A stretch of 35,331 bases of DNA. Source: a virus (taxonomy: Duplodnaviria > Heunggongvirae > Uroviricota > Caudoviricetes). The notes under the pieces were generated by a model, which was given only the letters and a program-made list of their open reading frames with translations, did no database searches and had not been told where the DNA came from. Both the position numbers and the translations under genes were made by a program. Shown one piece after another: positions 7,259 through 35,331 of the stretch. Each line of letters opens with the position of its first letter. Positions within the stretch are counted from its first letter, which is position 1. The DNA lies in IMG/VR virus record IMGVR_UViG_2703718813_000007; one strand, written 5' to 3'.

Positions 7259-9318
7259 TATGCAAGCCTCACGATGTAGTTAAATGCGATGTTTTTGACG
7301 GTGTTTTCCGCATTACCGGTGGGGTTAATGGTCAGGCCGTGGCCATGTTGACCCAGTGCGAGCGTGTGGATGTGTTCGCCAATGCTTACCGAATGTGTGT
7401 GTTCCGAAACTCTGGCGATCAGGTTCGCCCCGGAGCCCGGCCCGTATGCGGTCCAGTCACCGCTGCCTTCCGGTGACGCGGTGGCGGTTCTTAATGATAT
7501 TGTTGCGCTGAACGGCCCCGCGCTGTTTGTTGTTTTTGTGCCGTAATTGAAGGATGAGGTCGTTTTTGTGCCAAGGTCAGTATTTGAGACGCTCCCTCCG
7601 TGGGTGTGCGATTTGATGCCGTCCTGCTCCTGTGACAATACCGCACGACCGCTGGCAGGTTTTCCCTTGATTGTCCAGCCACGCATATCCGGGATACGAC
7701 CATCCGGATAGGCTTTTGCCAGCAGGGGATATCGTGCTTTATCGAATGTCTGCCCCACCATGATGGCGTAACCGGCAGGTGGGGTGTCTGACGGCCACGG
7801 CAGGGGAACGCCTGCGGGTAACAACTCACTTGCAGGCAGTGCGCCGATGTCCTGTGGTGTGGGTTTGTTTTTGTCCGTGTAAGTGCGGTACCAGATGGTG
7901 CTTTTCCCTTTATTTAAAACAACCCCGGTGAACTGTGTGCGGAGGTACATGTCGGCAGGGTTTGGGCTTTCGAGACCTGTCGTGATCCTGATGATCCCCC
8001 CGTTGATGTCGCCTGATACTTCGATAAGGCAGCCTCCAAGGCAGATATCACCATAGCCCGTATCAGTGAGCACGCTGTGCCGGGAAAGTGAAATATTGGC
8101 TTTGAATATCCAGAGTCCTGGTCTGAAGGCGCCACGTTCATTCAGCCATTCCACGAATTGTTCTGTTGTCCAGCGTTGCCCTGCTTCACCCACGTACCCG
8201 TCTTTTGCATAAACGCGTGGTGCGCCCACGTTGATCAGGAACAGCTCCTTGTTGGGGATGTCCTCACCATTGCGGTTTTTCGCAAGCCGACCATCGGCGT
8301 TGTCCATGGCGATCTTTATAGCCTTTGGCGTGGCTGCCTGTGTCTCTGATGTACTGGTGGTGGCGCTGCTTAACTGTGTGAAGCCCTTTTCTTTCAGCGT
8401 TGCGTCCGGGTGGTTGCGTGATTTCTCGTGTTTTTTCAGAGCGTCCAGCCAGCGGCGTTCTTCCGGCGTTCCTCTGGGGCGCAGGTCAGTCACGTTGCCG
8501 TCTTCATCAATGTCAGCAAGGGCAAAAAAATATTGCCGGGCGGCCTCCTTCCTGTGTGCTTCCAGCAGGATCTCTTCCGTGGCGGCGGGGTCGGCCATGA
8601 TAATATCGTGCTCCACCGTCCATTCACTGGTGAGCGTACCGGTCCACCATACTGTCAGCCAGATACGGGACGGGAAGTCTGGCGTGGTCAGCGGTATGTC
8701 TTCGGTCAGCTCTGCGCGTAATCCCTCCACGTAACCGGTCCCTTTGCAGAGTGACCATCTTTCGCCTTTTTTAACCAGCCAGCCGTCCCCAAAGAATGCA
8801 GCGTTACCGTAAATATCGATGTTTTCCCGGCGCTGGCGCTCGTCCATGGCCGCCAGACGTGCCGTGAAGTCTATCTGCCAGGTCTGCGCCGGGGTGGTGA
8901 TACCTGTGGCTTCCTTCGCACCGCTGTACTCCATGAGCATGGAACGGACCAGCACATTACCTTCGTTACCGTTGTGGGTTCTGATTTTTTTCTGTGTGGG
9001 GGCGTGAACAATCATGGCCAGCGTGCTGGTTGCTTTGCTGACCAGTCCCACCCAGTTAAATTCAAAATCACCCAGCTCTGCCCCCAGGGTGACCGAATAA
9101 ACCACGGCATTCTCATTCACCACGCCGGTTTTGCCAACGGCCTGGCGGTGAACAATCTGATCTTCAGGCGGCAGGGTTTCGTCGGGGGATACCGGTGTTT
9201 CCGGGTTGAGGTCCGGGACGTTTGCAAAAACAAACTCATCCAGCACAACGGGGGTGCCTTCCGCCGCCTGCTGTGCCTTGAGCCGGATAAAGGCGCTGGT
9301 AATTACAGATTTCGCCAT
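7258..9318 (-). CDS. Tail fibre protein, 686 aa
   Basis: Contains the tail-fibre shaft motif [33 protein letters not shown] (shared with the P2 H family) and a C-terminal receptor-binding region ending [24 protein letters not shown], as in lambda Stf-type fibres. AAGGAG precedes the ATG at 9318. Confidence 0.85.
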
Positions 9319-9340
9319 AAAGTCATACTCCTTCAGTCAT

Positions 9341-9889
9341 TCACTCTGCCCTGGCCGTCCAGCAGATATACTCCCCTTCGTATGCGCCATAATGGATGAT
9401 GAAGGGGTTAAGGGTTTCCACCTCAAAACGGTAACGGCGGCATGTCCTGCCATATTTGCGGATGATCTCCAGAAGAAGATCGCTGTTGTCGGCTATCTGG
9501 CTGTCTGTCACCTGCACCAGGATCACATCCCAGTCCACGCCGGGCTTGCGCTCCTGCAACTCCACATGTCCAATGCCCAGCCGTTCAAAAATGGCAATAA
9601 ATCCTGCCACCTCTCCGGCGTCCTGTGCATTGACAAAGGCGTGGGCGATACGGCGGCGGTACAGTGATGTGGGTTCACTTTTAAAACGGGTGATGTCCCG
9701 CTCCCATGCCAGTAAATCAAGTACGGGCTCTGCACATGTCATGGGGTCAAACTGGCGCACGGGCCAGGTGATCCATTCCCATACGCGGGACCAGAACGCC
9801 TGCGCGGCCCGCAGCAGTTTGTCGGGTTCCCCCCTGTCCATCCAGGAGGGCAGTTTCAGCGAGCGAAGTCGCTGCAAAAAGTCATTCAA
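9341..9889 (-). CDS. Baseplate/tail protein I-like (DUF2313/YmfQ-like), 182 aa; TTG start
   Basis: Lies between the baseplate J-like gene and the tail fibre gene, as P2 I / Mu gp48 do. The start codon at 9889-9887 is TTG with GGAGG 6 nt upstream. Family assignment is by position and size. Confidence 0.55.
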   Translation of the reverse strand: MNDFLQRLRSLKLPSWMDRGEPDKLLRAAQAFWSRVWEWITWPVRQFDPMTCAEPVLDLLAWERDITRFKSEPTSLYRRRIAHAFVNAQDAGEVAGFIAIFERLGIGHVELQERKPGVDWDVILVQVTDSQIADNSDLLLEIIRKYGRTCRRYRFEVETLNPFIIHYGAYEGEYICWTARAE

Positions 9890-11066
9890 TGACCACCTCC
9901 ACTGTCAGGGATTCGAGCCGTGGCACGGCCAGATCGCTGATGATGTCTTCCAGTGAAAACTGAACCGAAGCCACCACCGGGAAGGTCTGATGAATTTCCT
10001 TGCCCAGCGTGGAAAACGAAAAGCGCGAATAGGGCCAGACTTTTTTCACATTAAAGCGGGCATTCTCCCGAAAAGCGCAGCGTATCAGGTCGCTGATATC
10101 CTGTTTCAGCCCTTCCGCGCCGTCCGGTGGCAGGGTGGTTGAGCTTCTGATGTATACGGTGACGTCCAGACGGTGACGCGTCTCCGGCATGGCGAAACAC
10201 TGCAAATCATCCCCGTGTCCGTGGTGCCCCTCTTCGTTGATGTAGCGGTTGACTGCTTCAATAAAAGGGGCAGAGGCCTCGCCGCTGTCCAGTAACAGGT
10301 AGGCGTTGGCCGTTCCCGGTCCTCTCGGGGCGTCGTGCTGAAAGTAGATCCGGTCGATGCTCAGGCCCGCCACGCTGGCGATAAGTCCCCGGTAGACGGC
10401 GTCCGTGTGGTAACTGCTCACGAGGTTAAACTGGTTGCGTATTCTGTCGCGCAGTTCGTCGTCGCTTTCCTCATCGGCACCCGGTACGGTCAGCCAGTCT
10501 TCCCGGTTCACCACGGATGCAATGCCGGGAATGGCAACGGGAAGGATACGGAAGTACCCCGGCGCGAGGTTGTGCCCGCTGCCTTCGGTGGTGGCTTCCA
10601 CGGGAACGGATGCGCCGCTTTTACCGCTGCTGATAAGCGTTTCCTCCGTGACGGCCATGCTGTATATCACGCCGTTAATTCTGGCGGTCTGGACGATGGT
10701 CCCTTCGGGGATGAGAACATCATCATTTGCTCTGGTTTTGGCAAACCAGATCACGCCACGGGCCTTACTGGCCGGTTTTGGGGTGATGTTGACGTCGTGC
10801 GCATGAAGCAGAAGAAGTGACCGGTCAGCCGTGGCGACAAACATACCGGGCAGCACAACGTCAACCAGCGCATCACGCAGCCACTGAACGGGTCGTATGA
10901 CAATGGTCAGAATGAGCCGCCAGAAGGGACTCATGGGCGAGGTGTTGGTGATGAGTCCGGTTTTCTGTACATCCTCATGAAAGAGGGTGGCGATCTCTTC
11001 TTCTGTTTCCGGCATACCGCTTTCACGGAATACCTGATTAAAATCAACGTCCGGTTTCCCTTTCAT
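9882..11066 (-). CDS. Baseplate J-like protein (P2 gpJ / Mu gp47 family), 394 aa
   Basis: Size and position match baseplate wedge J. Family assignment is from gene order and general resemblance only. Confidence 0.7.
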   Translation of the reverse strand: MKGKPDVDFNQVFRESGMPETEEEIATLFHEDVQKTGLITNTSPMSPFWRLILTIVIRPVQWLRDALVDVVLPGMFVATADRSLLLLHAHDVNITPKPASKARGVIWFAKTRANDDVLIPEGTIVQTARINGVIYSMAVTEETLISSGKSGASVPVEATTEGSGHNLAPGYFRILPVAIPGIASVVNREDWLTVPGADEESDDELRDRIRNQFNLVSSYHTDAVYRGLIASVAGLSIDRIYFQHDAPRGPGTANAYLLLDSGEASAPFIEAVNRYINEEGHHGHGDDLQCFAMPETRHRLDVTVYIRSSTTLPPDGAEGLKQDISDLIRCAFRENARFNVKKVWPYSRFSFSTLGKEIHQTFPVVASVQFSLEDIISDLAVPRLESLTVEVVIE

Positions 11067-11394
11067 AGTTCACCCTGGTGTTTATGCGTCCAAAATCCTG
11101 TGTCTCTGCCGTCACATGCAGCCTGCCCGGTGCCTCTTCGTTAATGAACACCGTCCCCGGAACCAGCCGTTCATCATCCTCAACCAGGAGGATAAGCCGG
11201 GTAATGATGTCGCTGCGCAGCGTCGGGCTGCGTTCGCCGATAAGCAGGGCGGCGATCCCGCTTTCGATAATGCTGTGCACCACGTCCTGGCCGATGCTGA
11301 CCCGGTTATCACATCGCTGTGGCTCGTTTCCGCTGTTCAGCGTAAAACTGCCGTCAGTGATAAGCAGGTCGATGTAAAGCGATGGCGTGTTCAT
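11044..11394 (-). CDS. Small baseplate protein (P2 W / Mu gp46-like position), about 116 aa
   Basis: The ATG at 11394 overlaps the tape-measure stop codon (ATGA); the track start at 11415 would overlap by 25 nt. Function inferred from position between tape measure and baseplate J. Confidence 0.45.
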   Translation of the reverse strand: MNTPSLYIDLLITDGSFTLNSGNEPQRCDNRVSIGQDVVHSIIESGIAALLIGERSPTLRSDIITRLILLVEDDERLVPGTVFINEEAPGRLHVTAETQDFGRINTRVNYERETGR

Positions 11395-25482: not shown

Positions 25483-26046
25483 TCATGAAAAATCTGGTAC
25501 TGAATACAGAGGCATAACCTGAAATCCGTTACACTTCCAGGACTGCGCTATATCTGGTGACTGCGTGATGGCGGGTAACGGGATTCTGTCATTCCAGGTC
25601 ACCCATGCCTTTGGCTCAGAGGTCAGGATCATTAACGCAATGCGGTAACTTTGTAGCCTGGCTTCATCATCCTCTGAAAGCCCGAACGGGATATCTGATT
25701 TTACCTCATCCATCTGTTCGATTTCCTTCCCTAAAAATACCTCGAGGAAGTTTCTGCTCTCCTGGCATAAGGCCATTTCCGGTATTGTGTACAGTGATTC
25801 AACATGTCGGCCTGCACGGTTCCAGGCTTTCACAGCGACATCGTGTCGTGTAATGTCGAAAGAAAGGCTTTCTTTGCCCGGAGTGGGGGATCTCCATGCT
25901 ACCGCCTTTGCGGTAAGTGCCTCCAGTGTAATACGGTGTACGCATAAGCGCATGAGGGTGTCATCGTCAGAAATCTCCTGTGTGTTCATTTTTTCAAGCT
26001 GCTCAATTTCATGGAGGTTATATTTTTTTAGTTGTCTTCTTTTCAT
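25483..26046 (-). CDS. Hypothetical protein, 187 aa, in the cargo slot between A and ogr/Q
   Basis: The ATG at 26046 (preceded by AAGGAAAAA) avoids overlap with the upstream small ORF; the track start is 26100. No recognisable motif. Local GC is lower than the phage backbone, by eye. Confidence 0.5.
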   Translation of the reverse strand: MKRRQLKKYNLHEIEQLEKMNTQEISDDDTLMRLCVHRITLEALTAKAVAWRSPTPGKESLSFDITRHDVAVKAWNRAGRHVESLYTIPEMALCQESRNFLEVFLGKEIEQMDEVKSDIPFGLSEDDEARLQSYRIALMILTSEPKAWVTWNDRIPLPAITQSPDIAQSWKCNGFQVMPLYSVPDFS

Positions 26047-26062
26047 ATGTTTTTCCTTTCGG

Positions 26063-26227
26063 TCACGAGAGTAACCAGATAACTGCAACGGTTGCCGCAT
26101 AAATTCTGGCGATAAAGCCTGCTGTGAAGTGGCGAAACGGGTTTTCCCACGTCAGGAATGCCATTAAAGCAATCCATGCAATGGTAAAAATCAGTGCGCC
26201 CTTAACGGCGATAAACAGTTCGTTCAT
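26063..26227 (-). CDS. Small two-helix membrane protein, 54 aa (below the ORF-track size cut-off)
   Basis: ATG at 26227 preceded by GGAGAACACCACA; translates to MNELFIAVKGALIFTIAWIALMAFLTWENPFRHFTAGFIARIYAATVAVIWLLS with two hydrophobic segments. Stop at 26063, 16 nt before the 187 aa gene start. Confidence 0.4.
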   Translation of the reverse strand: MNELFIAVKGALIFTIAWIALMAFLTWENPFRHFTAGFIARIYAATVAVIWLLS

Positions 26228-26300
26228 TGTGGTGTTCTCCTTTGTGTGTAGGGCGAATGAATTGCGTTGCGGTGAAAAAATCGGGCGCGTCAGTGCGGCC

Positions 26301-26456
26301 TTACTGCTGACGGCGTTCCCGGAGTTCGGTCAGTGCTGCAAGTAAATTCTCCCACCACGTTTCTTCCACGACCGGGTTTTGTCGTGAAAGCAGCTGCTGT
26401 GCCGACTCAATCATTTTCGTAAGCTCCCTGTCGCTGATCCTCCTGGTGTCGTTCAT
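26301..26456 (-). CDS. Small hypothetical protein, about 51 aa (helical, charged)
   Basis: The internal ATG at 26456 is preceded by AAGGAG at 8 nt (MNDTRRISDRELTKMIESAQQLLSRQNPVVEETWWENLLAALTELRERRQQ); the track start is 26495. Confidence 0.4.
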   Translation of the reverse strand: MNDTRRISDRELTKMIESAQQLLSRQNPVVEETWWENLLAALTELRERRQQ

Positions 26457-26504
26457 TGTGCGCTCCTTTAGTTGGCTGTTTCTGGTCATGTTCATGGTCT
26501 TTGT

Positions 26505-26909
26505 TTACCTGCGTGATTGTCTGCCAGCGGCTGAATGCACATAGCGGGCAATTGCCGCTTTGCGGTTAATCGATGCCAGTGTTCTGGTCAGTTCTGCGTT
26601 GTGTTTGTGTGCCTGCTCTTCGTGGTACTGCCGCATGATTTTTCCGGCAGGCGTGAGCGGCTCCGGCTCTCCGGGCGGACGGCGCGGACGAACGGCGACA
26701 AGCCAGCTGCGGTTGGTGCTGTCCGGTCGTCCGTTGAGTATGTCGGTGATGATGGCCGTGGTGGTGCGATCGGGACTGACGACCGTGATTTCCAGCTCAT
26801 CGCCCGGTTGTGGCCCCGTGGCAATGTTGTTCAGGGTCAGTAAGGGCGTGCGCTGGCGCATCATTTCGTCAAAACGCTGGCGCTGCATGGCGCAATAAAA
26901 GCGGGTCAT
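26505..26909 (-). CDS. Hypothetical protein, 134 aa, translationally coupled to replication gene A
   Basis: The ATG at 26909 overlaps the A stop codon (ATGA). Occupies the position of P2 orf91. High-GC backbone composition. Confidence 0.55.
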   Translation of the reverse strand: MTRFYCAMQRQRFDEMMRQRTPLLTLNNIATGPQPGDELEITVVSPDRTTTAIITDILNGRPDSTNRSWLVAVRPRRPPGEPEPLTPAGKIMRQYHEEQAHKHNAELTRTLASINRKAAIARYVHSAAGRQSRR

Positions 26910-29425
26910 TGTGGCGCCTCCGTATTCGGTGCGGGGGTGATATCAATGCGGCGGGTGCTGTCATTCCAGTACGCGGTGCGTCCGTCAGCCAGGCGCACGC
27001 GGGCACCGTGACGGACGGAAACGACGGCGCTTTCATGCAGCTGCACGCCCAGCGCATCAAGCTCGCGGGTGATTTGTGCGGTGATGTGTGGCTCAGCGGT
27101 CAGTGCGACACTCACGCGAACGCCGCCAGCGGACGCACTGATGCCGCCGTTTTTCACGGTTTCCGTGTCAGGTTGCGGGTTTTTCAGCTGCCTGGTGAGT
27201 TGTTTTCGCTCTGTGGGGGTCAGTGACCTTAACCATTCACCCAAATCACCTTCCGGCAGGGTAAGTCGCTGCTCCCTGCGTCCGTCCGGCTGCCTTTCTG
27301 GCGGGTCGTTTATGGTCAGATTCTGGTCAGGGGGACAGTTATTGCCACGAGTCCAAGGTGCGGCAAAGCCGCACTCAACGTCAAAACCCTCGTCCGTGCG
27401 GTCTTCGTTTTCCGGCTTACGTCTGACCAGTTTCCAGGTGTCCGGGTGGGTGCATATGGTGTAGCGCTCCCCGAGTGACGGGGCGCGGACGCCGTAAATG
27501 CGTTGCGGGAATTCGCCGTAGTCGTTGGCCTCTTCGGCAGTTTCGTATGCGGTGCGGACTAGGTACGTGTTGCGGGGAATGAGCACACCACCCTGGCGGG
27601 TGATATAGGTGGCAAAACATCCCACGTCGGCGGCGGCCAGTATGGCGTCAATGTCGTCATGGTCCAGACGCTGCGGGGCAGCCGGGTTACGGGCCATCTG
27701 CCCGGCAAGGCGGCGGAGTTCTCGCCATACCTGGCGGGGAGGGATACCGAAGAACTGGAACTGGCGGATGCGGTGAAGGGCCGCCCAGCCGATGGCGTTC
27801 TCCACGGTTTCGGCCATGGTTTTGCCTGATTCCTTATCGACGTAAGGTTTGCCGGTTTTCGGGTCATTCCCCATGAAGGCGCTGGCGTCCAGGTTCTTAC
27901 CGATATAGGTCGCGATATAGCTCGCCGGTGTGCCTTTTGCCGGGTCGATTTTTTCGCATTTAAAACGCGGGGAGATATCATCACCCAGCTCTGCGCGGTC
28001 CTCCCTGATGGCGGCGTTGCGCATGATTTCAGTGATACGGGCTTCGTTTTCCGGGCTGGTGAATACCAGCATGTGCCAGTGCGGTGTACCGTCGTGGTGG
28101 GGCTCCACGGTGCGCACGCCGTACCAGCCCAGCCCGGCCTTGTTGATGGCCCTGCGGACGGCGGCGAAAAAGCGGTAAACCAGATAATCACTGGCATCAC
28201 GTACCGTTGCTCCGCAGTATTTCGGGTTCAGGCTGCCGTCATCGTTCACGCTGTGAAAACGGGAAGGGGCTGTGACGGTGACGAAAAACGCCACGTCGCC
28301 GCGTGCTTCGGCGACCTGCTCCATTCCCCGGACGCAGGCCATCATCTCGTTACGGCGGTTACGCGGATTAGAGAGACCTGCCCAGTAGATATCCTCAAGG
28401 CTGAACCGTTCTCCCTCTTCGTTCTCGATGTCCCAGGCCTTCAGAAAATCGCGGGTGCGCTGGCGTTTTTCGCGCCAGTCCAGTAACGCTTCATGGCTGA
28501 TATATACCGATGTCTTACGTGACACCAGACCTGCGGCGCGTAACAGTTCTTCACGCCAGATGTCCCGGAGGTGTCTTAACTGACTGTTCCACCATGTCGC
28601 ACAGGAAAGGCGCATGACCGCACCCGGCACCTGTTCCGGGTCGGGGGCGGTGCGGCGGTCGGGCCTGATTTCCAGCGACGGCCAGCAGGGTGGCGTGATA
28701 CCCAGTTTTAACGCCATGTGTGCCAGTGGCTGGTAGGTCAGTAACCAGGTGAACAGGTCATCGTCACCCCTGCCGGTCTTTTCGATGACCTCATCACATG
28801 CGCGCTCCAGTGCGGTGGAAAACGCGGTGGCGGTCAGGGTGGCAAGGCGCTGGATTTCGTCACGGCTCAGCTGCGGCAGCATAAGCAGTTCATCCAGCCG
28901 TTCGCGCGCGGCGGTGGCCTTAAAGGCCGGGGTGGCAAAGCGATCATTCACACGGGCGATACGTTTCAGGCGGGCACGCAGCCCGTGACGAACGAAGTTA
29001 TCCGCCGCGTATGCGCTGTTGTTCTTAAGCCCTTCCCGGCGTGCGCTCTCCTGTTTGCGGCTCAGGCGTGCCAGGTCACGGATGAGCGGACCGGCAAGAA
29101 ACGGCGGCAGGGCGCGCAGCTCTGCCATGGCTTCAGATACCAGCGTTGGCGGATTCTCGTGTTTGTGCCGCGCCAGTTTTTCCAGTCTGATCCGACGCTC
29201 TTCGTCGTGGTGAAGATGCGAATTAATTCGCTTGCCTTCGTCTGTGTTTGTCAGGAAGTCGACGGTCTCTTCATCCAGTCTTGCATCAATGCGAATGTCT
29301 TCGTTGATGTAGCTCTGAATGGCCTGGCGCAATGCGGTTGGTTGCGCTCTGCCGAATGTTTCAGGATCGATAACCGGTAGCGGGGCGTTCCACGGGTACG
29401 CCAGTTGTGCGTTATGGTCGCTCAT
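26906..29425 (-). CDS. A: Replication initiation endonuclease (rolling-circle), P2 gpA-like, about 839 aa
   Basis: Size and position match P2 A; the central region contains a His-hydrophobic-His cluster (PHWHMLVF) and downstream Tyr residues (ASYIATYIGK) typical of rolling-circle initiators. ATG at 29425; the track begins at a GTG at 29434. Confidence 0.88.
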   Translation of the reverse strand: MSDHNAQLAYPWNAPLPVIDPETFGRAQPTALRQAIQSYINEDIRIDARLDEETVDFLTNTDEGKRINSHLHHDEERRIRLEKLARHKHENPPTLVSEAMAELRALPPFLAGPLIRDLARLSRKQESARREGLKNNSAYAADNFVRHGLRARLKRIARVNDRFATPAFKATAARERLDELLMLPQLSRDEIQRLATLTATAFSTALERACDEVIEKTGRGDDDLFTWLLTYQPLAHMALKLGITPPCWPSLEIRPDRRTAPDPEQVPGAVMRLSCATWWNSQLRHLRDIWREELLRAAGLVSRKTSVYISHEALLDWREKRQRTRDFLKAWDIENEEGERFSLEDIYWAGLSNPRNRRNEMMACVRGMEQVAEARGDVAFFVTVTAPSRFHSVNDDGSLNPKYCGATVRDASDYLVYRFFAAVRRAINKAGLGWYGVRTVEPHHDGTPHWHMLVFTSPENEARITEIMRNAAIREDRAELGDDISPRFKCEKIDPAKGTPASYIATYIGKNLDASAFMGNDPKTGKPYVDKESGKTMAETVENAIGWAALHRIRQFQFFGIPPRQVWRELRRLAGQMARNPAAPQRLDHDDIDAILAAADVGCFATYITRQGGVLIPRNTYLVRTAYETAEEANDYGEFPQRIYGVRAPSLGERYTICTHPDTWKLVRRKPENEDRTDEGFDVECGFAAPWTRGNNCPPDQNLTINDPPERQPDGRREQRLTLPEGDLGEWLRSLTPTERKQLTRQLKNPQPDTETVKNGGISASAGGVRVSVALTAEPHITAQITRELDALGVQLHESAVVSVRHGARVRLADGRTAYWNDSTRRIDITPAPNTEAPQ

Positions 29426-29832
29426 GCGTCGCACTCCCCGGCAGTCGCCGCCTGAAACGCCGCGCGGTACAGCACGAGAAGGCGCTGGTATTCACCGATA
29501 AAGTCTTCTGCGGTGTATATGCCTTTCACGGCCACGCTGTGGTTTGTCATTTCCAGAACAAGCGTCATCTCTGACGACGACCAGCTGATGGCGGTGCTGT
29601 CGGTTCCGTTGATGTGAAATAAACCAAAACCATCACCTTTCACGTCCACGCGGTAACGGTCGTCAACGGTGAAGGAGAAATCCCCGTATGTGGTGACGCG
29701 TCTGGCGGCCTGTTTACAGGCGCGGCGGTAATAGTCGTGCCAGTCGTTGAGGCGGGAAGCCAGCCGGGGCTCCACTGCCCACATCCAGTTAAAAAAATCC
29801 TGAATATCTGAAAGTCCCTTAACGTTCTTCAT
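29422..29832 (-). CDS. Hypothetical early protein, 136 aa
   Basis: ATG at 29832 preceded by GGAGG; its stop overlaps the A start. Function unknown. Confidence 0.55.
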   Translation of the reverse strand: MKNVKGLSDIQDFFNWMWAVEPRLASRLNDWHDYYRRACKQAARRVTTYGDFSFTVDDRYRVDVKGDGFGLFHINGTDSTAISWSSSEMTLVLEMTNHSVAVKGIYTAEDFIGEYQRLLVLYRAAFQAATAGECDA

Positions 29833-29900
29833 GAGAACCTCCGGTCACAGACGTGCGGAAGCCTCCCGCGCACGGGTGCGGGATGGCTTCAGGATGTTGT

Positions 29901-30128
29901 TTAGTGGTGGTGTTGCTGGTTGATAAGGTCCTGCAGCTCTGCCAGGTCATCCGCCAGGTAGCTGAAGACAGCAGCGCAGTAACGGTTTGATAGCGCGTGC
30001 GTGCGCTCATGCAGCATGTTGATGTGCATGATTTGCGCGACGCGTGTTGCGCGCCAGAGTCTGCGGTTGATTTCAGTCCGGGTGTGAAGACGCTCAGCGC
30101 GGGCGCGCTGTTGCTTGCGGTTTGCCAT
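29901..30128 (-). CDS. Hypothetical small early protein, 75 aa (basic N-terminus)
   Basis: ATG at 30128 preceded by AAGAGG. The longer overlapping 206 aa track ORF is judged spurious. Confidence 0.45.
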   Translation of the reverse strand: MANRKQQRARAERLHTRTEINRRLWRATRVAQIMHINMLHERTHALSNRYCAAVFSYLADDLAELQDLINQQHHH

Positions 30129-30450
30129 GGTGTGGCCTCTTTGCTAGTAAGTTCTGAAAACTCACCAACCTGAGGCGGTAATCTCAGGGTGGCGAGACGT
30201 ACGGGGTTACCACAACCGGCTAGCAAAGAATCCGGCCCGACCGAAGTCGGCCCCGTACGCCCCGCCATAATTCGTGTGCGAAAAAGACGTGGCGATACAG
30301 TACGCACAAAAAAACCGCTGGCGCGGCTGTGCGCTTTGCTAGTCGGCGGGGTGGTAATCCCGGCACCCGTTTTATGAGGTGCAGCGGGAATGTAACCTGA
30401 CTGATTGCGGCATGGCAAGCGGTTTTTTTGTGTGTGCATGTTCTGGTTTC

Positions 30451-30750
30451 TTACTGGTTCAGAAAAAAATCAAAAACCTTGTCAATGCGTTGCAGCAGCT
30501 CTTGCTGTATTGCTTCCGGCGTTTCCGGTTCGCCCGGCGACTCCAACGTCGCGCAGAAATCAGCGATTTCATGATGGAGCGTCAGGCGAATGGCAGGAGC
30601 CGTGGTTCTGGCGTGCTCCAGCTCATCCAGCAGTGCCAGCACAGCAGACGGCGAGAGCATTGCGCGAAATGCCAGTAATTTTTGAGGCGTTGCCATTCGT
30701 TGCAGGGCAAATGCCAGTTCGCGTAGCTTCTGGTGGTTGATGGTGCTCAT
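30451..30750 (-). CDS. Hypothetical small protein, 99 aa (paralogue of the 31039-31251 product)
   Basis: Its ATG overlaps the stop of the upstream winged-helix gene (ATGA). The C-terminal half (HHEIADFCATLESPGEPETPEAIQQELLQRIDKVFDFFLN) is paralogous to the 31039-31251 product. Confidence 0.5.
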   Translation of the reverse strand: MSTINHQKLRELAFALQRMATPQKLLAFRAMLSPSAVLALLDELEHARTTAPAIRLTLHHEIADFCATLESPGEPETPEAIQQELLQRIDKVFDFFLNQ

Positions 30751-31013
30751 GCTCTGGCTTCCTTCAGTAGCTGGTTAAACATGTGAGCAAGTGGATTGCT
30801 ACACCCGAACGGCATCGGGTTTACGTGGTAAGAAGCCTGGCCTCCTGTTTTGCGAGCGCGACCACCTGTGCTGCGGTTTGTTCTGATGACTAAGCCGCCG
30901 CGCCAGAGTCGGCGTAACTCAGCATTAATGGCTGTGGTTGGGGTATTCAGTGCTGCGGCGATTTCACTTCCGCTGCACCCCGGATTGGCTGCGATGTAGT
31001 CCAGAATGGTCAT
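30747..31013 (-). CDS. Winged-helix DNA-binding protein (putative transcriptional regulator), 88 aa
   Basis: The segment SGSEIAAALNTPTTAINAELRRLWRGGLVIR looks like a helix-turn-helix with recognition helix and wing. Assignment by pattern only. Confidence 0.5.
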   Translation of the reverse strand: MTILDYIAANPGCSGSEIAAALNTPTTAINAELRRLWRGGLVIRTNRSTGGRARKTGGQASYHVNPMPFGCSNPLAHMFNQLLKEARA

Positions 31014-31038
31014 CGTGAGATCTCCTTTGCAGTTCCGG

Positions 31039-31251
31039 TTATTCAGTCGGGTTCAGGGTGTAATCAATGGCGTTTTCAATACGGCGTTTAAGGTCCCGGT
31101 GGATCTCACCTGGTGTTACTGGTGCGCCCGGACCGCTCAGCGTTGCCGTGAAGTCGTCGATTTCCTCCAGTAACAGATTGCGGAGTACGGCGATGTGGTG
31201 GCGTGCGTCTTTACCGGGTTTACGTGCGTTGGTGGTGTACTTGCTGATCAT
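31039..31251 (-). CDS. Hypothetical small protein, about 70 aa (paralogue of the 30451-30750 product)
   Basis: The internal ATG at 31251 overlaps the stop of the upstream gene (ATGA). The C-terminal region LLLEEIDDFTATLSGPGAPVTPGEIHRDLKRRIENAIDYTLN is paralogous to the 30451-30750 product. Confidence 0.45.
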   Translation of the reverse strand: MISKYTTNARKPGKDARHHIAVLRNLLLEEIDDFTATLSGPGAPVTPGEIHRDLKRRIENAIDYTLNPTE

Positions 31252-31490
31252 GGCCGCAGTTCTCCGTGGGCTTGTGTTTCTGATTTCCATGCCCCTCTGA
31301 TGGCCGTTACTTCGCGAACGGTACTGGCAATCGCGGTGATTTGTGTTCCGTCAGCCAGATGGATGTAGAGATAATCAGCGTCTGACGGGCACGGCGTGGT
31401 CGTTGTGATCAAATGACTTTCCACCATGAACTCGTGGCCCACGGCATCGGTGAAACGCGTCAGCATGGTGGCGGTAAATATGCTGTTCAT
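31248..31490 (-). CDS. Hypothetical small early protein, about 80 aa
   Basis: ATG at 31490 preceded by GAGGGG; the track start at 31505 is a GTG overlapping the upstream stop. Confidence 0.4.
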   Translation of the reverse strand: MNSIFTATMLTRFTDAVGHEFMVESHLITTTTPCPSDADYLYIHLADGTQITAIASTVREVTAIRGAWKSETQAHGELRP

Positions 31491-31501
31491 CGACCTGCCC
31501 C

Positions 31502-31780
31502 TCACGCTGAAAACTGGCCGGACTGTGTCCGGAGTTCTGCCAGTTCGCGCTCGAGGCGCAGGTTTTTCATATAGAGTTCACTGATGGTCTGTTTTGCTGT
31601 CACCATTGCCATGCTTTGCATTTGCAGGGCCATGTAGGTGGCAAAATGCTTGTCTTTATCTATTTCTGATATTCTTTCATCCAGTACATTGGTTATTTCA
31701 GTCAGCGTTTTTTGCGTAAATTCAATATGCGCCGGGTCGGTAAATAGTTTGTTTATTTCTGTAGGTGTATTGATGCTCAT
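31502..31780 (-). CDS. Hypothetical early protein, 92 aa (helical, coiled-coil-like C-terminus)
   Basis: ORF in the early operon; no motif recognised. Confidence 0.45.
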   Translation of the reverse strand: MSINTPTEINKLFTDPAHIEFTQKTLTEITNVLDERISEIDKDKHFATYMALQMQSMAMVTAKQTISELYMKNLRLERELAELRTQSGQFSA

Positions 31781-31859
31781 AGCTGTTTCTCCGTTTCTGG
31801 ATTGAGTGAAGCCCTCCGCAGATGCGGATGGTTTTAATGTTTTCTGTCCGGTTGGTTAT

Positions 31860-31985
31860 TTATTTACGGCGTTCTTCGCCAGTAAATAAAGATTCGATAT
31901 TTTTCAGCGCTTCGATAATTCGCATAATGCCAATCGCCATAAGCACGGAAATAATCAGAATCACCCATGAAAGAAATACGCTCAT
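31860..31985 (-). CDS. Small hydrophobic protein, 41 aa (below the ORF-track cut-off)
   Basis: Its ATG at 31985-31983 overlaps the TGA of the upstream 80 aa gene (ATGA); translates to MSVFLSWVILIISVLMAIGIMRIIEALKNIESLFTGEERRK, one transmembrane helix plus a charged tail. Confidence 0.35.
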   Translation of the reverse strand: MSVFLSWVILIISVLMAIGIMRIIEALKNIESLFTGEERRK

Positions 31986-32224
31986 GCTGCCACCTCTGTG
32001 AAATAAGGCTCAACGATTTCACCTTCAAACAGTTCGGCCACAATAACTTTTAATTCTTCCAGTGCTTCGCGGTCATCGCTGCCCAGTGCGCAGTTATACA
32101 GTCCCATAATTGCGCCCCGCAGTGAGTTACGAAGTCCTTCGTCCCGGGTTACACCCCGGTTTGCGAGTTCGAAGTGATAACGCTGCAACGCATTATTAAT
32201 AAGTATTTTGTAGGCTTCGATCAT
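31982..32224 (-). CDS. Hypothetical early protein, 80 aa
   Basis: ORF in the early operon; no motif recognised. Confidence 0.5.
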   Translation of the reverse strand: MIEAYKILINNALQRYHFELANRGVTRDEGLRNSLRGAIMGLYNCALGSDDREALEELKVIVAELFEGEIVEPYFTEVAA

Positions 32225-32243
32225 GGCTGAATCCTTTTATTTA

Positions 32244-32582
32244 TCAGCGGCGATGTTCCGGGTGCTGAAAACTGCGACCGCTGATTAACCGGTCTGCCGT
32301 TCTTAATGCTTCGTGTAGGGTGAAATCCTGCCCGAACTGCTCATCTCCGCGAGTCAGGGAGTAACAGGTATTTCCGGTAATCGGGTTGCGTGCGCCTCTG
32401 TGTATGACAATTCCGGCATCATTAATCAGCCAGGTGTGTTTACCGGTTTGTTTAACCAGATGCCCGTCAGGTGTGGCGTGCGTTTCCTGCAGGCTGTAGT
32501 GCGAGTTGCTGCGTGATGCGCTGGTTGAGAAACGGGCTGCGTGGCGTTCTGTGCCAGTGCGGAAGCTGCGTCTCTGTGTCAT
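32244..32582 (-). CDS. Hypothetical early protein, 112 aa
   Basis: ORF in the early operon, preceded by a CCACGC-CCGGC-GCGTGG hairpin at 32633-32649. Confidence 0.5.
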   Translation of the reverse strand: MTQRRSFRTGTERHAARFSTSASRSNSHYSLQETHATPDGHLVKQTGKHTWLINDAGIVIHRGARNPITGNTCYSLTRGDEQFGQDFTLHEALRTADRLISGRSFQHPEHRR

Positions 32583-32689
32583 ATCGAAAAACCCCGTTTA
32601 AGTTAAATGAAAATCAGTGCCGGGATGTTTAACCACGCCCGGCGCGTGGTATTCTGGTGTTTCCACACAACCAGAAAAAGGAGATAACA

Positions 32690-32884
32690 ATGTCTTACGA
32701 CGATGAATTAATAAAAATGCTTAAATCAGTAATTGAAATCGTGGATAAAATCCCCGAAGTTCCTCCGTCTTCTGATGATAAGCACGATCAAATCAGAGAT
32801 CTGGCTAACGATGTCCGCGAAAAAGTACTTCATAAATACCCTCGCAAGAGTTCCTGGAACTTTTCTAAGGGACCAACATACTAA
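32690..32884 (+). CDS. Hypothetical small acidic protein, about 64 aa, AT-rich cargo gene
   Basis: ATG at 32690 preceded by AAAAAGGAG at 8 nt; the track start is 32657. Convergent with the 131 aa gene, stops 13 bp apart. Markedly AT-rich by eye. Confidence 0.5.
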   Translation: MSYDDELIKMLKSVIEIVDKIPEVPPSSDDKHDQIRDLANDVREKVLHKYPRKSSWNFSKGPTY

Positions 32885-32897
32885 TAACCATGCCTGG

Positions 32898-33293
32898 TTA
32901 CTCCGGCATTTTTCTTTTGTAAATAGTGGTTTTATTAAGTGCCATTTCTCCGAATATATCCACAGCCTGCTCAACGGGCAGATTAATCATTATTCCACGG
33001 CTTGCGTATAGCATTATTCCGATGCATCCATTTTCTCTACTTTCGCAAAAGTGTCCGAACTCTGCTTCTGGTTTAAGTATCAGGTCATCAATGTTTTCAT
33101 TCGCTTTTAGCTTTGAACAAAAGTTAATTAATCCTTCAAGCTCTTTGTGTAACTCGCTATAGGTTGTTGTGATTGTTATTTTCGGTGAGCCTTCCAGATG
33201 CATCAGTATCGTGGCGTCCTTGTGTTCCTCTTTCAGGAGGCTTAACTGCTTAAGGACGGTTGCGGTTTTTTCTGATTTATTTTTGCCGCTCAT
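32898..33293 (-). CDS. Hypothetical protein, 131 aa, AT-rich cargo gene immediately downstream of the Cox-like gene
   Basis: ATG at 33293, 7 nt after the stop of the Cox-like gene. AT-rich codon usage unlike neighbouring phage genes. No motif recognised. Confidence 0.55.
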   Translation of the reverse strand: MSGKNKSEKTATVLKQLSLLKEEHKDATILMHLEGSPKITITTTYSELHKELEGLINFCSKLKANENIDDLILKPEAEFGHFCESRENGCIGIMLYASRGIMINLPVEQAVDIFGEMALNKTTIYKRKMPE

Positions 33294-33299
33294 CGATCA

Positions 33300-33824
33300 T
33301 CACCGTTCGTTTACATCCTGGCTCTGTTCCAGCTTTGACTTTCTGCCTTTGTAAACCCGTTTTCCATTGACGGTCTGGCAATCTTCCTTATCAGCCGGGG
33401 TAAACTTTCTTTTCTGGCGGTCGTATGTCCAGTAGCTTTTCCAGTTGTGCCATTCTGGTGGCTCGCATTCCGGGAGTTCGTCGGCCAGCTTGTCCCACTC
33501 TCTGACGTTAAACCACCAAACACCATCCGAATTCTCATCTTCAGGGTTTGAGCGGGTTTTATGTCCTGGCATCTGGTTACGCTGAAGAGCTGCGCGTAAT
33601 GCTGTTTTTGTTAATCCGATGTAGGCGGCCCCTTTTTCAAGTGAGCAAAGCCCGGCTATTGGGCCATCCAGCCGCAGGGTTGCCCCTTTTTTATATGTGC
33701 GCTGTGGCTTTTGTTCGTCGTTGTTATCTGTTGCTTCTTGTTGACTGGTATTGGCGTTGATGTACGCCGCTCCAGTTGTGTGATCGGTGTCAGATAACTC
33801 TTTATCGGCAATGAAGTCCCGCAT
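33300..33824 (-). CDS. Cox/Apl-like DNA-binding regulator (putative excisionase/transcriptional regulator), 174 aa
   Basis: First gene of the operon divergent from the repressor gene. The segment AAYIGLTKTALRAALQRNQMP ... GVWWFNVREW looks like a helix-turn-helix plus wing. It is longer than P2 Cox. SD GAGAGGA precedes the ATG. Confidence 0.5.
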   Translation of the reverse strand: MRDFIADKELSDTDHTTGAAYINANTSQQEATDNNDEQKPQRTYKKGATLRLDGPIAGLCSLEKGAAYIGLTKTALRAALQRNQMPGHKTRSNPEDENSDGVWWFNVREWDKLADELPECEPPEWHNWKSYWTYDRQKRKFTPADKEDCQTVNGKRVYKGRKSKLEQSQDVNER

Positions 33825-33885
33825 TTGTTATCCTCTCGCACAGGTGCGCCTATTGCACCTTATGAAGGTTTGTTTTGGGTTGTGA

Positions 33886-33937
33886 AGATAATCGAAAGGT
33901 TATCTTTTTCGAGAGGTTAATACTCAAATGGTTATCT
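33886..33937. promoter_or_regulatory. Operator-like repeats in the divergent repressor/Cox promoter region
   Basis: Inverted repeat AGATAA (33886-33891) and TTATCT (33900-33905); direct repeat GGTTATCT at 33898-33905 and 33930-33937, the latter overlapping the repressor start codon. Confidence 0.4.
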
Positions 33938-34269
33938 TGTCAATAGACTACGCGGAAAAATTACGCCAGATACGTAAGGCGGAGGGCTTAACGCAAAAAC
34001 AATTTGCTGAAATTACAGGGTTATCTCTGGCCACCGTAAGGAATTATGAATCAGGGCAAAAGAGCGCCAGAGCTAAAATCGTGGAGTCGGTTCTTCAGGC
34101 AGATCGATTTGAAAAGTATATGTTTTGGCTGTTAAAGGATAAGACGCTACCTGCCGCCGGGCAAATTGCCCCGGCTCTCTCTCTTGATGGATCTTCTCAG
34201 TCGGAGGGCGATCTGGCTTCAATCGACGTTACCCAAAAATCATCCCGATCAGGCCGCAATGCTGGCTGA
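33928..34269 (+). CDS. C: Immunity repressor, P2 C-like (helix-turn-helix), 113 aa
   Basis: The N-terminal KLRQIRKAEGLTQKQFAEITGLSLATVRNYESGQ and the later GQIAPAL match P2 C as I recall it (SRQQLADLTG, QIAPAL). Directly upstream of the integrase. Confidence 0.8.
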   Translation: MVILSIDYAEKLRQIRKAEGLTQKQFAEITGLSLATVRNYESGQKSARAKIVESVLQADRFEKYMFWLLKDKTLPAAGQIAPALSLDGSSQSEGDLASIDVTQKSSRSGRNAG

Positions 34270-34338
34270 CGTTACACATCGAGCGGGTTTCATCCCGCAG
34301 GGAGTGTTTGGTTAATTTATCCGTTGGAGGGGCTAATC

Positions 34339-35331
34339 ATGTCGATTAAGCAACTCAAAGACGGACGTTATAAGGTTGATGTAAGGCCACAAGGGACGGA
34401 AGGAAAGCGGATTCGTAAGATTTTTACCCTGAAGTCAAAGGCGCAGGAGTTTGAAAGGTATGTTTTGCAGAATTTTCATGATAAGCCATGGCAGGCTAAG
34501 CCAGCAGATCAGCGTCGGTTATCCGAACTGATAGAGGCCTGGTGGCTGCTTGATGGTCGTAACCAGGATTACGGGGATACCTACAGGGTCAGACTGGAAA
34601 AGATAAACCGTGAGATGGGTGATCCTCGTGCCAGTCAGATGACGCGAAAATTTATGCTCGGGTACCGGTCCGACAAATTACAGGCCGGGTTAATGCCTTC
34701 CAGCATTAACCGCGATTTGTGTGCCTTGTCTGCAATGTTCAGCTCGCTGATTGAGGGTGAGGTGTTCCATAACGAAAACCCGGTTCGGGGAATACGTAAG
34801 CTGAAAGTCAGGAACACAGAGATGGCCTTTCTTTCAGATGAGGAGATTGAACGACTGCTTGAACGACTCGATGGAGATGCGCGGCGTGTTGCCATTCTGT
34901 GTCTTTCCACGGGGGCAAGGTGGGGTGAAGCAGCTGGTTTACGTGGGGAACATATTGTAGGTAACCGCGTGATGTTCTTTAACACCAAGAACGGAAAATC
35001 TCGCGCCGTTCCCGTTTCTGATGCGGTACTTGCGTTAATTAAAACCCGCAGAACCGGATTGTTGTACCAGGCTGATTACCTCAGATTTCGGGAGATCCTT
35101 CAGGAGGTGAAGCCGGACTTGCCGAAAGGGCAGGCCACCCATGTCATGCGTCATACATTCGCTACACATTTCATGATGAATGGCGGAAATATCGTTACGC
35201 TACAACGAATCCTGGGCCATGCCACGATTCAACAAACGATGACGTATGCGCATTTTTCGCCGGACTTTTTACAGGATGCAATCAGCTTTAATCCGCTGGC
35301 TGAAAGTGTCCATAAACTGTCCATCGATTAG
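34339..35331 (+). CDS. int: Tyrosine integrase, P2 Int-like, about 330 aa
   Basis: MSIKQLKDGRYKVDVRP aligns with the P2 Int start MAIKKLDDGRYEVDIRP. Conserved LSTGARWGEAA, GQATHVMRHTFATHFMMNGG and TLQRILGH..I.QTMTYAHF motifs are present. The ATG at 34339 is preceded by GGAGGGG; the track begins at 34324. Confidence 0.92.
   Translation: MSIKQLKDGRYKVDVRPQGTEGKRIRKIFTLKSKAQEFERYVLQNFHDKPWQAKPADQRRLSELIEAWWLLDGRNQDYGDTYRVRLEKINREMGDPRASQMTRKFMLGYRSDKLQAGLMPSSINRDLCALSAMFSSLIEGEVFHNENPVRGIRKLKVRNTEMAFLSDEEIERLLERLDGDARRVAILCLSTGARWGEAAGLRGEHIVGNRVMFFNTKNGKSRAVPVSDAVLALIKTRRTGLLYQADYLRFREILQEVKPDLPKGQATHVMRHTFATHFMMNGGNIVTLQRILGHATIQQTMTYAHFSPDFLQDAISFNPLAESVHKLSID

Follow-up and report, generated by a model that had tools for sequence, protein, structure and literature searches.

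The 320-bp gap inside the early operon of a P2-like prophage encodes, with a probability that we put at about 0.85, a complete antisense-RNA immunity cassette of the P4/P1 type on its minus strand, which is predicted to gate an anti-repressor gene. The prophage, analysed here as a stretch of 35,331 nucleotides (the window), is of the P88/Xuanwuvirus type and carries a Cox-like gene, a gene for a 113-aa repressor of the P2 C type (35% identical to P2 C, E 4e-23), an integrase gene, gpA, and tail and head genes. The RNAs and the mechanism are already known, antisense-RNA immunity since 1990, and the cassette in the window, though clear-cut, is an unexceptional example of an established system. 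It would account for the striking "empty" gap of a prophage type that is common in E. coli, a gap that RefSeq leaves blank or mislabels as a broken 'ash family' gene, and it would place a P4/P1-style RNA switch with an epsilon-type anti-repressor inside a helper-type P2-like phage.

Two RNA families in the gap

The gap separates a 99-aa ORF (30750..30451) from a 75-aa ORF (30128..29901), both on the minus strand. A preliminary description of this DNA had drawn attention to the length of the gap and to repeats and stems within it; the gap, from the end of the 99-aa ORF at 30451 to the start of the 75-aa ORF at 30128, and all of these elements were recovered at the same positions. The motif CTTTGCTAG occurs three times in the 35,331-base window, every time within the gap; in dinucleotide-preserving shuffles a mean of 0.16 copies is expected, and three copies were reached in none of 100. 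Two copies are direct and extend to CTTTGCTAGT (30139-30148 and 30334-30343), while the 9-mer of CTTTGCTAGT is found inverted at 30220-30228. An 8-bp inverted repeat (GTACGGGG at 30199-30206, CCCCGTAC at 30251-30258) is the inner part of a 17-nt inverted repeat (30190-30206 and 30251-30267), in which 88% of the positions form Watson-Crick pairs and 17 of 17 pair when G.U is counted. The nested hairpin, described before as lying at about 30234-30253, is present and was placed at about 30237-30250. The preliminary description overlooked the minus-strand RNA nature of the region and a second set of complementary segments (b).

When the whole window was scanned against Rfam at the curated gathering scores (45 bits for C4, 50 bits for IsrK), exactly two matches were obtained, both within the gap and read from the minus strand; scanning 26000-35331 under looser settings gave nothing beyond C4 and IsrK. 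A search of RNA family databases had been proposed in the preliminary description, and a non-coding RNA, one of the options it listed, turned out to be the right one, as two curated families are matched full-length and well above threshold. All RNA features given below lie on the minus strand and are written with descending coordinates.

The first match is a C4 antisense RNA of the CI type (RF01695, named after the c4 RNA of P1/P7) at 30272..30185, with a score of 82.6 bits against the gathering score of 45 (E 5.7e-15), and it covers positions 1-87 of the 87 in the model. Within its closing stem of 17 bp (30267..30251 paired to 30206..30190) lie hairpin 1 (30250..30237), hairpin 2 (30236..30215) and a single-stranded junction of 8 nt. 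The 12-nt loop of hairpin 2 bears a first specificity segment, a' (UCUUUGCUAG, 30229..30220), and the junction holds a second one, b' (GUGGUAA, or GTGGTAA in DNA; 30213..30207). The minimum-free-energy fold is identical to the Rfam consensus (-48.1 kcal/mol, z -4.7), the stems are 100% paired across 19 related loci with three compensatory pairs, and the 3' end carries the ..GCCACCC tail that is conserved in the family consensus. The elements noticed earlier find their places in this RNA: the 8-bp long-range repeat falls within the closing stem, the nested hairpin corresponds to hairpin 1, and the inverted CTTTGCTAG is the a' loop of hairpin 2, while the direct copies are its targets a1, in IsrK, and a2, further downstream.

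The second match is an IsrK-type leader RNA (RF01394) at 30382..30308, scoring 62 bits against 50 and covering model positions 1-77 of 77, the 3' terminator included. This RNA is the counterpart of the P4 'seqA' region and of the 'c4-a1b1' motif. Two hairpins at its 5' end are followed by the a1 site, which is single-stranded, and by an intrinsic terminator, and it folds only modestly better than shuffled sequences (z -1.4). The b1 target (UUACCAC, 30357..30351) lies in the loop of hairpin 2 and complements b', and the a1 target (CUAGCAAAG, 30342..30334) lies in the linear part and complements the C4 loop. The terminator (AGCCGC-GCCA-GCGGUU followed by a U7 run, 30328..30308) belongs to the Rfam consensus structure and was also found by an independent terminator scan.

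A predicted sigma-70-like promoter (TTGCCA-18-TACATT, 30418..30389) ends 6 nt before the 5' end of IsrK and is the sole promoter-like site in 29800-30800. Its hexamers are near-invariant in the 19 loci, with the single exception of locus L029 (TTGCCG), and the spacer sequence is divergent in L052 and L029; unrelated C4 loci have a promoter-like hexamer pair at the same place. No LexA box (CTGT-N8-ACAG) was seen when promoter and spacer were read by eye. Overlapping this region, an upstream arm (ACACACAAAAAAACCGCUUGC, 30435..30415) complements the 3' half of the IsrK terminator and its U7 run (30322..30302), the two forming an inverted repeat (30415-30435 and 30302-30322) of 21 nt with 90% pairing. 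The arm would be present only in transcripts begun upstream, at the early promoter, and in the predicted fold of such an RNA the upstream-arm helix replaces the IsrK terminator (z -4.4). It is kept in all P2-like loci, with a single apparently compensatory variant, in L029. The modelled folds suggest that the arm may be a promoter-origin-dependent antiterminator, by which only transcripts from the early promoter bypass the IsrK terminator; its A-run could equally be an UP element, and the two functions are not separable here.

A protein-coding reading of the gap was dropped, with no Pfam match for either the 206-aa ORF on the minus strand (29819..30439) or a 62-aa ORF on the plus strand. The 206-aa ORF, which had been judged spurious before, indeed extends over both RNA genes and, in a different frame, into the 75-aa gene, and the Pfam search gave neither Ash nor any other family for it.

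Covariation of loops and targets

The preliminary description had proposed a covariation analysis in homologous regions, and the paired positions do covary in relatives. Our alignment holds 19 distinct sequences including the window, drawn from about twenty viral-contig loci that share the order C4, epsilon-like gene and gpA, together with P88 and a second P88-type record. Between C4 and its upstream targets, the a'-a1 helix is 100% paired with both sides changed in 6 of 9 pairs, and the b'-b1 helix is 99% paired with both sides changed in 4 of 7. For the two helices together the paired fraction is 99.7%, and both sides have changed in 10 of the 16 pairs; no shuffle out of 500 was as good, and slid controls were 27-52% paired. 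The downstream targets behave likewise: a'-a2 and b'-b2 together are 98.1% paired with both sides changed in 9 of 17 pairs, b'-b2 by itself being 100% paired with 4 of 7 changed on both sides. Each of the four intermolecular helices is 98-100% paired across the 19 P2-like loci. That six specificity segments have stayed mutually complementary through so many changes requires selection.

The segments are far more variable than their surroundings, with a pairwise identity of 0.65 in the specificity columns and 0.91 in the rest of the module. Among the 19 loci there are 8 a-types and 7 b-types in 12 a/b combinations, and a and b assort independently. The cells that depart from Watson-Crick pairing comprise 11 G.U and one A.C, an excess that favours RNA pairing on the minus strand over DNA sites.

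A genome scan at the species level with a profile of the epsilon-like gene yielded four further loci of the same layout, in Salmonella, E. albertii, Trabulsiella and a contig labelled Vagococcus, a number too small for a taxonomic survey. All four have IsrK and C4 directly upstream of the epsilon-like gene, and they add three a-types and one b-type, all fully matched. The last of these loci (L134, NZ_JBQPOM010000071.1, labelled Vagococcus sp. WN89Y) places a P88-like cassette of enterobacterial kind on a contig assigned to a Gram-positive genus; its epsilon-like gene shares 78% identity with that of the window, and the contig is probably contamination or a mislabelled assembly.

The pairing extends beyond these relatives. 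A scan of viral contigs with a variable-gap pattern found 120 loci with C4-like hairpins, which reduce to 115 unique instances with 61 loop sequences. A perfect loop complement of at least 8 nt was present upstream in 49% and downstream in 70% of the 115 unique instances, as compared with 0.5% and 1.9%, respectively, when loops were swapped.

Genes presumed to be gated, and related immunity systems

Downstream of the C4 core lie b2 and a2. The b2 target (30181..30175) complements b' and occupies the loop of a hairpin formed by an inverted repeat (CUCGCCACCCUGAG-AUUACCGC-CUCAGGUUGGUGAG, then UUUUC; 30196..30161), with a fold of -21.3 kcal/mol (z -6.4) that is 86% paired in the 19 loci. As the 5' arm of this hairpin is the 3' strand of the C4 closing stem, the two structures are mutually exclusive. 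The hairpin may be a weak terminator; it is followed by only four U residues, and the terminator scan does not call it.

The a2 target (CUAGCAAAGA, 30147..30138) overlaps the Shine-Dalgarno sequence of the 75-aa gene (AAGAGG, 30141..30136), which stands 7 nt before the ATG at 30128, so that pairing at a2 would block translation of this gene. The arrangement is general: in 81 of 83 unique C4 loci a2 ends 2-11 nt (mode 10) before a start codon, counting ORFs of at least 40 codons, and the downstream site takes in the first bases of the Shine-Dalgarno sequence. Among the first gated genes of these loci, 30 of 74 match the Pfam family Rha and 13 of 74 match Derepression, with AntA, Bro-N, ORF6N and P22_AR_C as further families. 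Judged by sequence, many gated genes match anti-repressor-type Pfam families.

The 75-aa gene of the window (30128..29901) encodes a homologue of the P4 epsilon helper-derepression (anti-repressor) protein. The match to Pfam PF25738 (Derepression) is barely above the cut-off (27.7 bits against 27) and an NCBIfam search gave nothing useful; BLASTP against P4 epsilon gives an E of 3e-7 with reciprocal PHROG cross-hits, and hhalign aligns the two over 63 columns with a probability of 94.9% (E 4e-8). Next on the same strand are two ORFs that overlap each other, one of 136 aa (29832..29422), which matches no Pfam or NCBIfam family, and gene A for the replication endonuclease gpA (29434..26906; Pfam Phage_GPA, 7e-107). 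Both are assigned to the transcription unit of the epsilon-like gene and may come under polarity control by the RNA. Between the epsilon-like gene and the 136-aa ORF there is a GC-rich hairpin on the minus strand (GAAGCC.UCCCGC...GCGGGAGGCUUC, 29853-29885), which lacks a U-run and does not stand out significantly from shuffled sequences (z -1.8).

In P4, the immunity region runs from the PLE promoter through seqA, the CI RNA (with seqB) and seqC to epsilon and alpha. The same two Rfam models match P4, C4 at 8507..8420 and IsrK at 8692..8615, which are the CI RNA and the seqA region; a correspondence of IsrK to seqA and of C4 to the CI RNA has been described (PMC3632133). The two elements thus agree in having the same two families in the same order and orientation, an antisense loop that complements one upstream and one downstream site, and an epsilon-family derepression gene followed by a replication gene in the same operon, with the window's a' equivalent to seqB and its predicted promoter in the position of PLE. 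They differ in that the host of the window cassette is a full P2-like phage and not a satellite, and in that its replication gene encodes gpA whereas that of P4 encodes the alpha primase. P4 also has some 245 nt (the eta/'cI ORF' Ash region) between C4 and epsilon, while in the window the epsilon-like gene follows C4 directly; IsrK and C4 are separated by 35 nt in the window but by 107 nt in P4; and orf151 of P4 is not a relative of the 136-aa ORF, the two showing no similarity.

The immI region of P1/P7 is ordered promoter, a1 b1, c4 RNA (a' b'), a2 b2, icd and ant. With it the window shares two separate segments, a and b, each of them present upstream of, within and downstream of the RNA, and a downstream site that covers the ribosome-binding site of the first gene in the anti-repressor operon. 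In P1, as described, that operon encodes Icd/Ant, whereas the anti-repressor of the window is of the epsilon type (75 aa), and the cassette of the window sits within an early replication operon, that of a P2-like phage. The upstream target motif has been described as 'c4-a1b1' (PMC2864571), c4 acts on the ant operon by blocking its ribosome-binding site (PMC12197685), and differences in specificity give heteroimmunity (PMC2864571, PMC12197685). The hypervariability of a and b in the P2-like loci fits such heteroimmunity as between P1 and P7.

Proposed mechanism, alternatives and spread

We propose that the internal promoter (30418..30389), which we infer to be active, would start the IsrK leader with its b1 and a1 targets and then the terminator. 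Transcripts that read through, or that come from the early promoter, would extend into the C4/CI-type RNA (30272..30185), a tRNA-like three-way junction for which excision by RNase P, as in P1 and P4, is most likely. Through a' and b', C4 would pair with a1/b1 in IsrK and also with b2, in its hairpin loop, and a2 downstream. The pairing at a2 would block translation of the epsilon-like gene, and polarity or premature termination would probably also lower expression of the 136-aa ORF and gene A; for RNase P processing, the translational block and the effect on gene A, P1 c4 and P4 CI serve as models (PMC12197685, PMC3632133, PMC4825925). The hypervariable a and b segments would set the specificity of immunity, such that an incoming phage of another a/b type would escape the resident C4 and could express its epsilon protein against the P2 C-type repressor, the presumed target of the epsilon-like protein.

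The IsrK leader allows a different emphasis. We consider it possible, though on balance unlikely, that the cassette is mainly a positive switch, a derepression trigger and not an immunity device, as at the isrK locus of Gifsy-1, which comprises IsrK, STnc1160, orf45 and anrP (PMC4825925). There the short IsrK was shown experimentally to activate, and not repress, translation of the downstream anti-repressor operon (PMC4825925), so that in the window, too, the net output in vivo may be either positive or negative. In the window, short IsrK (ending at 30308) would act in trans on read-through transcripts or soak up C4 via a1/b1, and translation of the epsilon-like gene would be turned on. Several features agree with this: the IsrK family match has an intact terminator, its perfect a1 and b1 sites make titration of C4 possible, so that IsrK could be a decoy, and in the predicted fold of the full leader a1/b1 are paired in cis to a'/b'. 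The Gifsy-1 locus further resembles the window in having an IsrK-family RNA with its own promoter and a leaky terminator, and an anti-repressor gene that comes after the RNAs; its STnc1160 is a stable downstream RNA formed by read-through, for which the authors suggest a P4 CI-like action (PMC4825925). Against a mainly positive switch, the homologous RNAs of P4 and P1 repress (PMC3632133, PMC12197685), and a2 lies directly on the Shine-Dalgarno sequence. Activation in Gifsy-1, a lambdoid phage, proceeds via the leader ORF orf45, whereas the window has no such ORF between C4 and the gene. The two readings, activation and immunity, are compatible with each other.

The exact sequence occurs in E. 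coli JNEC-KY174, where RefSeq annotates nothing in the gap, and at an identity of at least 80% the cassette is present in 1,203 of 5,426 complete E. coli genomes (22%). P2 itself, scanned for weak hits with E values as high as 1, matched neither C4 nor IsrK, and the cassette can therefore not be counted among the general features of P2. In GenBank and RefSeq the IsrK/C4 stretch of relatives is annotated as 'similar to ash family protein' or as a partial ash pseudogene (L001 3077-3337; L131 1568-1837; L130 4530-4851), and an ncRNA feature is absent from all these annotations and from that of the window's own genome. In P4, the ORF of the 'cI gene product' overlaps the CI RNA and matches Pfam Phage_ASH. 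In the literature searched, P88 and phiSM appear solely as P2-like phages that can be induced or are released spontaneously (PMC5285337, PMC6456863), and the cassette was not found described for any P2-like or P88-like phage.

The lack of the cassette in P2 and the partial 'ash family protein' pseudogenes annotated over the same stretch would suit a decaying remnant without present function, for instance a piece left over from a P4-like satellite or an 'ash family' gene that has been disrupted. We hold this to be very unlikely, given that both RNA models are matched end to end, that the six specificity segments have remained complementary, that the 206-aa ORF matches neither Ash nor any other Pfam family, and that more than a fifth of the complete E. 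coli genomes carry the cassette.

Hardly credible is a role of the repeats as DNA, be it as iterons or an origin or as an operator array for the neighbouring MarR-type winged-helix protein, both suggested in the preliminary description. In favour of such a role, a 9-10-mer is present within 200 bp in three copies, two of them direct and the third inverted, next to the gene of a DNA-binding protein and upstream of a replication gene, and a protein-binding site would also give identical covariation of all three copies. Against it, the departures from Watson-Crick pairing are strand-specific (G.U over A.C, 11 to 1), each site lies in a loop or junction of the RNA or else on a ribosome-binding site whose distance to the start codon is fixed, the cassette is also found in P4-like and Rha-gene (non-P2-like) contexts whose first downstream genes have no MarR-type match, and the origin nick site of P2 is annotated inside gene A.

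Returning to the antisense-RNA immunity cassette, its presence bears on the induction of P2-like prophages and on their interplay with related prophages and P4-like satellites. A more far-reaching proposal, which we regard as speculative and rather improbable, is that P88-like phages of the P2 family have a two-tier immunity, combining the C repressor with the RNA-immunity/epsilon cassette that their satellite P4 also has, with the upstream arm as a possible antiterminator. If this were true, the range of related prophages open to derepression by an incoming phage would depend on the combinatorial a x b specificity, for which there are at least 11 a-types and 8 b-types, and the cassette common to helper lineage and satellite could bring about cross-regulation between them. 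Three points stand out, namely the occurrence of one cassette in both a helper-type phage and its satellite, the combinatorial specificity and the gap in public annotation; the matched natural a/b variants are also a ready panel of orthogonal antisense RNA-target pairs.

Some further observations were made in the window and in related loci. The 99-aa ORF (30451-30750) and an 83-aa ORF (31039-31290), both on the minus strand, flank the MarR-type gene and have a common C-terminal domain (47% identity over 45 aa, E 1e-12); they show only a weak Ead/Ea22 match. In the Stx2a phage LC645413 (L003), an ALIL pseudoknot, a frameshift element of the IS3 family, was detected at 1047-1163 with 120.9 bits, about 2 kb from the IsrK/C4 cassette of that phage, which indicates an insertion sequence nearby. 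Finally, IMGVR_UViG_2671181028_000005 (L032) contains three tandem 656-bp cassettes at 9196-11246, each with a C4-like RNA of different loop, and hence specificity, followed by a 120-aa Rha-like gene; a further example is found in L020 (4710-5401). The coding parts of the tandem cassettes are 96-97% identical and the RNA parts 76-78%, and the set is an array of differently addressed anti-repressor cassettes.
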